Assembly (NCBI GenBank): GCA_050084515.1
Contig: CM114271.1
Coordinates: 36,766,001-36,830,000 of the forward strand
Direction of reading: 5' to 3'
Length of the DNA stretch: 64,000 nt
Origin: Blasia pusilla
Lineage: Eukaryota
The stretch's first letter is position 1. The number at the start of each line of letters is the position of its first letter. The notes under the pieces are model-generated. The model had not been told where the DNA came from and ran no database searches. It saw nothing but the letters and a program-made list of their open reading frames with translations. Position numbers and translations under genes: made by a program. Shown here one piece after another: positions 4,301 through 5,240 of the stretch.

Positions 4301-5240
4301 GATAGTGATCGATACCGAGTCCTATGACGTCTTGGTTGGATGAGTAATGTTGTACCCGATGGGATTTTCCTTGGATTACCGGGAGGATTCTACGTCCTAC
4401 AAACTAGGATGGTTTTTTGGCGACGGGCGACTTAGCTTATTACCCGTTGGATTCACAAGTGGTGCCGTCAAGGGACGGGCGTCAAGGGACGGCCAGGAGA
4501 GATGGCCACTCTAGCAGCATTGAATAACACCATCACTTTGAGGGGCATGCCCATGTAGGGGACACACTTGTGCTTGACACTTCTACAGAGAGGAGTGTTA
4601 TGGTAGCCACATGATTCCGTGGAGCAAAGGTCTCATTGTCGGGTTCAAGTGAGGAACTTTGACGGTTGATTTATAAGCACATGCAAATGGACAAAGGCAT
4701 TTGTACTAGAGCATGATGGATTAGAGGAACGCAAGGTAGCCGAGAGTGCTTTGATGACACCATTGGACACCTGATCAATTGTGTGGTGTATCCTAGAGGA
4801 TACACCATACCTATTTGAGTGTTGGATCTCTTTGGGGGGATCATTACTGGATTAGTTTTTATTTTGGAGGAAAGAATGCGTGTGCAATAGTATTTGTGTG
4901 TGGAGCTTGATGAGGTTGCGAGCCGCGTCTCACTTTGACATGTGGCATAATTACACCTCCATTTTCCCAACTTGTTCTCTTCGTCGGACGTACAAGGGTA
5001 TAATAGTTCCCTAACTAGGACATTTCCTTGTTGGGGGACCTAGACTTGGATTGGGTGGAAACCATCGATTTGGTCATTGCGGGCTGGCCATATCATGGCC
5101 AGTGGAGTGTTGGATAAGGTAGCGGTTTAGCGGACACTCGATCCTGGTTTTTTGGGAGATGATGAGGATCTTGCGACACTTGTAAGAACATCACTCTCGT
5201 TCTCCAACATACATTCTAGAGAATATACCAATCTTGGGCC
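1389..5240 (+). mobile_element. 3'-truncated, degenerate Ty3/gypsy copy: short LTR-like 5' region, gag, protease, N-terminal half of DNMT3-like domain
   Basis: Starts with TGTTGTGCGC. 1450-2050 is homologous to 44000-44570. ORF 3893..4279 contains VLLDSGAQPL (aspartic protease). Collinear with the reverse complement of 49960-52690. Many in-frame stops. Confidence 0.85.
4813..5240 (+). pseudogene. Retrotransposon-borne C5 cytosine methyltransferase (DNMT3-like), motifs I-VI, disrupted
   Basis: Manual translation gives VLDLFGGIITGLVFIL (motif I), YLCVELD (motif II), IDLVIAGWPYHGQ (motif IV with Cys>Tyr) and YILENIP (motif VI). Contains stops and a frameshift. Confidence 0.85.

Follow-up and report, generated by a model that had tools for sequence, protein, structure and literature searches.

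Results

Copies of a Gypsy-DNMT3 element in the Blasia pusilla window

The window analysed here is a 64,000-nucleotide stretch of DNA from Blasia pusilla (GenBank assembly GCA_050084515.1, contig CM114271.1, positions 36,766,001 to 36,830,000 of the forward strand); its DNA is eukaryotic and rich in repeats. It very probably holds four old, broken insertions (copies A to D) of one Ty3/gypsy retrotransposon family of the Gypsy-DNMT3 kind. The family is common to liverworts and mosses, encodes a cytosine DNA methyltransferase (DNMT) domain and had an intact catalytic Pro-Cys in its ancestor. The layout of the family can be read from the relative at locus L037, which has two long open reading frames (ORFs): ORF1 of 1369 amino acids (gag, protease and a PF00145 DNMT match with E 1.8e-13) and ORF2 of 1047 amino acids (RVT_1, RNase H, integrase and PHD). 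A second locus, L036, has the same layout and only 76% DNA identity to L037. In natural relatives the intact element has gag, protease and DNMT in ORF1 (with FGG, GWPCQ, ENV and RPR, then motifs IX and X) and, in the same phase, reverse transcriptase (RT), RNase H, integrase and PHD in ORF2; a single conserved stop, usually TAG with CAA behind it, divides the two.

Copy A lies on the minus strand. Its internal region (45183-52714), delimited by Pfam searches of the three minus-strand frames and by colinearity with the two L037 ORFs, reads gag-protease-DNMT-(stop)-RT-RNase H-integrase-PHD. The gag part (51450-52697) was recognized from its translation, with zinc-knuckle-like stretches at 52178-52161 and 52073-52044; Pfam gave no gag match for it. 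The aspartic protease (50700-51441) can be followed colinearly in L037 ORF1 and in the related protein P0005 (549 aligned positions between P0005 and copy A), and its active-site stretch at 51096-51076 is LLDLGVQ, with Leu where copy B has Ser. Behind it lie the DNMT3-like domain (49421-50376; Pfam PF00145, motifs and tblastn), an in-frame TAG stop followed by GAA CCA (49180-49178) between the DNMT and the RT, and the RT-RNase H-integrase core (46793-49135, by Pfam; YIDD box at 48493-48476), which is 56.6% identical to L037 ORF2 over 781 aligned positions and contains 12 stops. The PHD finger (45183-45371; Pfam PF00628, E 3.2e-9) forms the end of the integrase reading frame and is 58.7% identical to the PHD of L037 ORF2 with 0 stops. 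The Pfam order RVT_1, RT_RNaseH, Integrase_H2C2, rve, found in both copy A and L037 ORF2 with the protease upstream, is the Ty3/gypsy order. Compared with the intact L037, copy A is spread over three frames, and its frame segments have 9, 18, 2 and 0 stops. About 1 kb of extra DNA (45799-46793, minus strand, 39% G+C), probably a later insertion, separates the integrase core from the PHD finger where L037 has ~35 residues.

Copy B (2454-5254, plus strand), identified by tblastn and by colinearity with copy A, comprises gag, protease and the first half of the DNMT. Positions 2505-5239 of copy B and 52684-49951 of copy A are colinear with 70.2% identity over 2806 aligned bases, and tblastn with the related protein P0002 found copy B with E 3e-13 (here and for copy C the search space was the 64 kb). 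On the plus strand it has a protease DSGA stretch at 4094-4114, motif I at 4825-4842, motif IV at 5082-5099 (Pro-Tyr-His) and motif VI at 5213-5230; its DNMT is spread over three frames and breaks off at ~5254, right after the ENI of motif VI. Copy C (666-1342, minus strand; tblastn E 2.9e-21 against the copy A frames and 2e-14 against P0002) retains the protease end, the linker and only motif I of the DNMT (NLFGGI, 797-780, minus strand), with the DNMT match breaking off near 687; Pfam alone did not detect it. Since copy C ends before motif IV, it shows the position of the domain and is silent on that motif. Copy D (54551-57080, plus strand), identified by sequence comparison with copy A, is an internally deleted copy of the same family in which a part of gag (55281-55721) is joined straight to the post-DNMT stretch and RT (55729-57077), without protease and DNMT. 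Its deletion of ~2.85 kb (52245-49397 in copy A coordinates) coincides almost exactly with the end of gag, the protease and the DNMT, and it left the RT and the boundary stop in place (TAG CAA TCA, 55962-55964, plus strand). Copy D may be a non-autonomous derivative.

The DNMT domain and its motif IV

When the related protein P0163 was used in a search of solved structures, DNMT3A came first (E 3.6e-11), followed by DNMT3C and DNMT3B (to 1e-7) and, among later matches, plant DRM (1.2e-6) and M.HaeIII (4.5e-5). By this search the domain is a predicted DNMT3-like C5 cytosine methyltransferase. P0163 can be aligned with the catalytic domain of the animal DNMT3A/3B/3C proteins through motifs I-VIII, at an identity of ~19-30% as estimated by eye from the alignment, and a DLS-like or GxS stretch follows motif IV in the aligned part. 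The animal motif IV is GSPCN, whereas here it is GWPCQ and there is no PWWP or ADD on the same chain.

Motifs I-X are the standard set of C5 methyltransferases. The DNMT of copy A (PF00145 at E 1.2e-7; score 32 bits, cut-off 22) has, on the minus strand, motif I (DLFGGI, 50364-50347), motif IV (50109-50092), motif VI (ILENVP, 49977-49960), motif VIII (HRPRLWW, 49854-49834), motif IX (EQERAMGF, 49558-49535) and motif X (LGQAMD, 49480-49463), all in unrearranged order; its first 217 codons contain 3 stops, and the frame changes near 49759. Copy B carries only I, IV and VI up to its break. The motif IV letters given by the initial annotation were re-read from the sequence and are as stated there: CCATAT at 5088-5093 (plus strand) in copy B, Pro-Tyr in AGWPYHGQW, and GCATGT on the minus strand in copy A (ACATGC on the plus strand, 50098-50103), Ala-Cys in VGWACQGQS. 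After the Cys position copy B has His where copy A and the relatives have Gln, so copy B differs twice within PCQ. The Pro-Cys nucleophile is consequently nowhere in the window (A has Ala-Cys, B Pro-Tyr, and C ends earlier), and the window copies are dead, pseudogenes of C5 DNMT family members.

A Tyr at the catalytic Cys codon, as at window positions 5091-5093, is also found in the decayed, unrelated copies P0179, P0087 and P0003. These sequences suggest a recurrent G-to-A change at that codon.

The DNMT is a family feature

The earlier claim that three diverged copies carry the DNMT after the protease holds: in A and B it lies behind the protease active-site stretch and in C behind what remains of the C-terminal protease part. 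Uninterrupted relatives with the protease followed by the DNMT are P0016 of Closterium (zinc knuckle, protease, DNMT), P0163 and L037 ORF1; in the Calypogeia model P0165 the same order is visible in the sequence, and Pfam reported only the DNMT. The domain is inside the element's own coding region and is intronless, as L037 ORF1 is a single 1369-amino-acid frame and the three window copies are colinear with L037 or with A. Likeness to DNMT3 is all that would favor host DNMT3 pseudogenes lying beside transposon debris by chance. The shared protease-then-DNMT order of three window copies and of intact single ORFs in relatives, a read depth in the thousands (below) and the lack of introns in L037 ORF1 speak against such a chance association, which the colinearity refutes and to which we attach almost no credence.

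The wider family has two domain orders, with the DNMT either behind the protease (P0016, P0163, L037) or between RNase H and integrase (P0012, P0013, P0022, P0224 and P0225), and the DNMTs separate into clades by order. A PHD after the integrase occurs in both orders; none is shown in P0013 and P0022. A search for full-length named polyproteins returned only 2 unnamed proteins, both RT-RNase H-DNMT-integrase-PHD.

Abundance in the genome was estimated from about 1% of one raw-read run with the same species label, from which 37107 reads were placed on 49100-51300 with at least 80% likeness. The protease bins had a summed depth of ~1860-2560, the DNMT bins one of 1100-2550, and the beginning of the RT one of ~2270; such similar values indicate that most copies with protease and RT also carry the DNMT between them. 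Only 21 of the placed reads have a likeness of at least 99% and 338 of 95-99%, and rough arithmetic from the reads gives a family of roughly 100-1800 copy-equivalents. Three RNA runs with the same species label gave 1024-1327 placed reads each, nearly all in one orientation: the first mates on the plus strand reach depths of ~17-104, versus 0-17 for the other orientation. Given the usual chemistry of stranded libraries, this would mean that the RNA is in the sense of copy A.

Comparing copies A and B gave a ratio of nonsynonymous to synonymous substitution rates (dN/dS) of 0.34 in the DNMT frame (bootstrap 0.20-0.59; 130 codons, those with gaps or stops having been dropped), 0.94 and 0.87 in the two wrong frames, and 0.39 in the protease and linker. 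The A-B differences in the DNMT fall 17, 22 and 36 times on codon positions 1, 2 and 3 (chi-square p 0.021). Part of the divergence therefore took place in lineages for which the DNMT was no less necessary than the protease. Between L037 and L036 dN/dS is 0.11 for the DNMT (312 codons) and 0.06 for ORF2 (1047 codons), at a synonymous distance of 1.2-1.5, which is near saturation. The DNMT was under purifying selection while the lineages of A and B diverged, and it is a feature of the family, not an accident of one copy.

Relatives and the ancestral Pro-Cys

Among the 63 proteins closest to P0163 are many models from Marchantia polymorpha as well as proteins of Calypogeia fissa and three Sphagnum species (source-given names). 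Motif IV is covered by 54 alignment rows of this set, metagenome copies included; 49 have Pro-Cys, 4 Glu-Cys and 1 Pro-Tyr. All six motifs are intact in P0163, P0165 and L037. A quick tree pairs copies A and B as sisters (support 98) within a clade of 11 rows (support 100); every named row of that clade is from a bryophyte (Marchantia, Calypogeia or Sphagnum), and three rows (P0163 and two JGI proteins) are unnamed. Because A and B are nested in this clade, by parsimony the Ala of A and the Tyr of B are private to them; the Ala-Cys of copy A and the Pro-Tyr of copy B are, as reconstructed from these alignments, private decay of an ancestral Pro-Cys.

The genomic reads bear on the same codon. 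There are 517 reads that break at 50131, and the consensus of their loose ends passes the Trp codon, its next letter being the one that starts a Pro codon. Copy B agrees with this letter and copy A does not; the three RNA runs have the same letter.

The proposal in the initial annotation that the transposing ancestor had Pro-Cys and was amplified together with its DNMT is supported, independently of the two-copy comparison on which it was based, by the natural relatives, by the purifying selection between A and B and by the undiminished read depth over the DNMT. As to the motif itself, Pro-Cys stands for the close relatives (49 of 54), but Pro is not essential in the wider clade. There, in the best 150 of 1402 representatives, 141 rows cover motif IV and Cys is kept in 136 of them; it is preceded by Glu in 66 rows and by Pro in 64.

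About half of the wider DNMT clade, Closterium copies included, has Glu-Cys in place of Pro-Cys, which is unusual for a motif usually held to be invariant. The 66 Glu-Cys rows would suit a conserved domain that does not methylate DNA and acts on RNA like DNMT2 or serves in the particle as a non-catalytic module binding DNA or S-adenosylmethionine (SAM). RNA methylation has been raised for another retrotransposon DNMT (PMC5890265). The nucleophile Cys, ENV and RxR are all constrained here, although a module that merely binds would have no use for them, and we regard such a function as improbable.

A number of observations weigh against the overall explanation given here. Every copy in the window is broken, as are most of the 26 metagenome loci examined, with only 3 of the latter having an ORF of more than 450 amino acids across the match. 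Pfam reported 0 families in the three plus frames of 1-9000, so that copy B is undetected by Pfam alone. At the ends of copy A no direct pair of long terminal repeats (LTRs) was found, matches there being only inverted and ~70%. The reads cover only the first letter of the codon before the Cys (the Cys codon is not among the 40 of 574 difference rows listed). The A-B dN/dS value comes from only 130 DNMT codons, and the L037-L036 comparison is affected by its near-saturated synonymous sites. Finally, the DNMT domain of KnitGypsy-Dnmt3, an element of the charophyte alga Klebsormidium nitens (below), gave no detectable methylation in yeast, a result its authors call inconclusive (PMC5890265).

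That yeast test and the broken motif IV of all window copies are what would be expected if the DNMT were a dead passenger, captured once from a host gene, carried neutrally and never of any consequence for transposition. Neutral carriage accords poorly with the A-B dN/dS of 0.34, when the wrong frames give ~0.9, and with the L037-L036 value of 0.11 at a synonymous distance of ~1.5. The six catalytic motifs are moreover preserved in liverwort, moss and algal relatives and the Cys in 136 of the 141 rows just described, and we judge a dead passenger to be very improbable.

A conserved stop between the DNMT and the RT

The initial annotation had expected one open frame from gag to PHD. This was not borne out, as L037 and L036 each have two in-phase ORFs split by one TAG (5083-5085 in L037 and 4661-4663 in L036). 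The stop is also present in L038 and L065, and 4 loci of one subfamily carry it. In another subfamily, the largest, it occurs in 38 of 39 loci (28 TAG, 10 TAA), followed by CAA CCC. Stops fixed across the family, which had been seen beforehand as a sign against an intact ancestor, therefore exist in the form of this one; it does not refute that ancestor, since it sits behind the DNMT and looks programmed. The Marchantia and Calypogeia gag-protease-DNMT gene models end 78-100 amino acids from the start of motif X, and in the more distant relatives P0207 and P0212 the DNMT runs straight into the RT with no stop.

In L037, L036 and copy D the context is TAG plus CAA or CAG, then UUA, UCA or CCA. 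In copy A the first letter after the stop (position 49177) differs from that of 96% of the genomic reads, which give CAA, implying the context just described for the majority state of copy A's family as well. The plant leaky-stop signal is UAG CAR YYA, and in tobacco mosaic virus it reportedly depends on the C that follows the stop (PMC2754532); here that C is kept in 38 of 39 loci and in 96% of the genomic reads. The family has the features of programmed read-through, namely in-phase frames, a conserved stop and a constrained ORF2 (dN/dS 0.06). From its recurrence, the in-phase constrained ORF2 and its likeness to UAG CAR YYA, we read the boundary stop as probably leaky, a programmed signal rather than damage. 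Gammaretroviruses likewise make gag-pol by stop read-through. In tobacco mosaic virus, too, a leaky UAG lies in phase between an abundant upstream product and the polymerase (PMC2754532); the upstream product differs here in including protease and DNMT, not Gag alone, as does the CAA CCC of the largest subfamily.

The stop might instead not be read through, with ORF2 expressed by splicing, by re-initiation or from a separate transcript, or with RT and integrase borrowed from other elements. The CAA CCC context falls short of the full CAR YYA, 10 of 39 copies have TAA, and P0207 and P0212 pass from DNMT to RT stop-free. Nevertheless, L036, L037 and copy A all have ORF2 in the phase of ORF1, borrowing from other elements would not maintain a dN/dS of 0.06 over 1047 codons, and the C reported as essential in tobacco mosaic virus is kept at the frequencies given above. 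We consider this alternative unlikely, although it deserves to be kept in mind, and retain read-through of a leaky stop in what follows.

Discussion

Comparison with known DNMT-bearing elements

The kind is already known: a 2026 preprint names it "Gypsy-DNMT3" of streptophytes (10.64898/2026.05.21.726589). What is added here is the land-plant members, the position of the DNMT ahead of a conserved stop, and a PHD finger. The described system to compare is KnitGypsy-Dnmt3 of Klebsormidium nitens, which has intronless Dnmt3-type domains inside a Gypsy element with key residues conserved and Ka/Ks <0.2 (PMC5890265, de Mendoza et al. 2018). Both are Ty3/gypsy elements with an unrearranged, intronless Dnmt3-type domain in the coding region under purifying selection (<0.2 there, 0.11-0.34 here). 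KnitGypsy-Dnmt3 is from an alga, whereas the relatives named here are from the land plants Marchantia, Calypogeia and Sphagnum, plus Closterium; its domain is in the "Pol polyprotein ORF" (PMC5890265) and not in a gag-protease frame upstream of a conserved stop; and its repeats are arranged in a DIRS-like manner according to a figure legend of that paper, whereas L001, L012 and L051 have ordinary direct LTRs. No Klebsormidium name was present among the source names of relatives, 30 proteins looked up by cluster included, and the comparison is by published description.

SymbioDIRS-Dnmt3 and SymbioLINE-Dnmt of dinoflagellates are likewise retrotransposons that encode a C5 DNMT, and SymbioDIRS-Dnmt3 methylates CG de novo in yeast (PMC5890265); these belong to the DIRS and LINE classes and to another host lineage, and are independent acquisitions according to the authors. 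The EpiLTRs of Cymbomonas and Euglena are Ty3/gypsy-like, as is the present family, and also combine a DNMT with a chromatin-reading domain (10.64898/2026.05.21.726589). Their DNMT is sister to DNMT4, lies at the 3' end of pol and is accompanied by an adenine methyltransferase and a chromodomain, whereas here it is DNMT3-like, lies behind the protease and is partnered by a PHD finger. Chromoviruses similarly have a histone-reader module on the integrase C-terminus; theirs is a chromodomain (PMC3605345), and here it is a PHD finger (PF00628) predicted from sequence. A literature search on transposon-borne DNMTs in bryophytes or Marchantia found no description (subscription journals and supplements were outside the search), and one on PHD-integrase retrotransposons found nothing specific.

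A possible role for the DNMT and the PHD finger

How might such an element use these domains? The DNMT would be made at the Gag level, within Gag-protease-DNMT, the abundant product, and would be freed by the protease, while ribosomes that now and then read through the leaky stop would add RT, RNase H and integrase-PHD. The DNMT could then methylate cytosines de novo, most plausibly on the new element DNA or at the landing site; methylation of the new DNA copy or landing site was proposed for such elements by the authors of PMC5890265. The PHD finger may read a histone tail and tether the integrase, and so act in landing-site choice in the place of the chromodomain of chromoviruses. The payoff of self-methylation might be less harm to the host, mimicry of host DNA, or marking of the landing site. 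We offer it as a tentative model, quite possible but short of probable, that bryophytes host a large, still transcribed lineage in which a DNMT in the Gag-protease frame, ahead of a conserved leaky stop, is made and packaged at Gag stoichiometry and methylates the new DNA of the element itself, and in which a PHD-bearing integrase picks the chromatin.

If true, this would be a self-marking retroelement equipped with both a writer and a reader. Hosts rely chiefly on cytosine methylation to combat transposons, so an element with its own de novo methyltransferase reverses the usual picture. The streptophyte case has so far rested on one alga with an inconclusive enzyme test (PMC5890265). The present data suggest that the Gypsy-DNMT3 kind reaches hundreds to about two thousand copy-equivalents in at least one large plant-like genome, is common to liverworts and mosses, and is transcribed. 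Its Marchantia polymorpha members are annotated as "hypothetical proteins", and that species is a genetic model, open to testing. Counts of DNMT3-like genes in bryophyte genomes can also be inflated by transposon copies.

Element ends and other repeats in the window

Direct repeats of 307-342 bp, 86-94% identical and ~8.7 kb apart, are present in the relatives L001, L012 and L051. Around copy A the flanking inverted ~70% matches are 42435-42979 with 54004-54581 and 44003-44226 with 52928-53158. They were considered as inverted terminal repeats of a DIRS-like element and this was dropped, as the relatives have direct LTRs and the pieces could equally be fragments of other copies; otherwise the ends of copy A may be unusually arranged. 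Two metagenome relatives each have a 468-bp internal inverted duplication of 92% (956-1423 with 5488-5021 in L020 and 9652-10119 with 14184-13717 in L045). Beside the 3' side of copy A is a perfect (AC) microsatellite of 122.5 units (44619-44863). An unrelated large palindromic repeat with long inverted arms occupies 13954-22483 of the window: the reverse complement of 17584-20311 is an 88% match to that stretch itself, and 13956-15651 pairs with 22483-20815 in inverted orientation at 91%.

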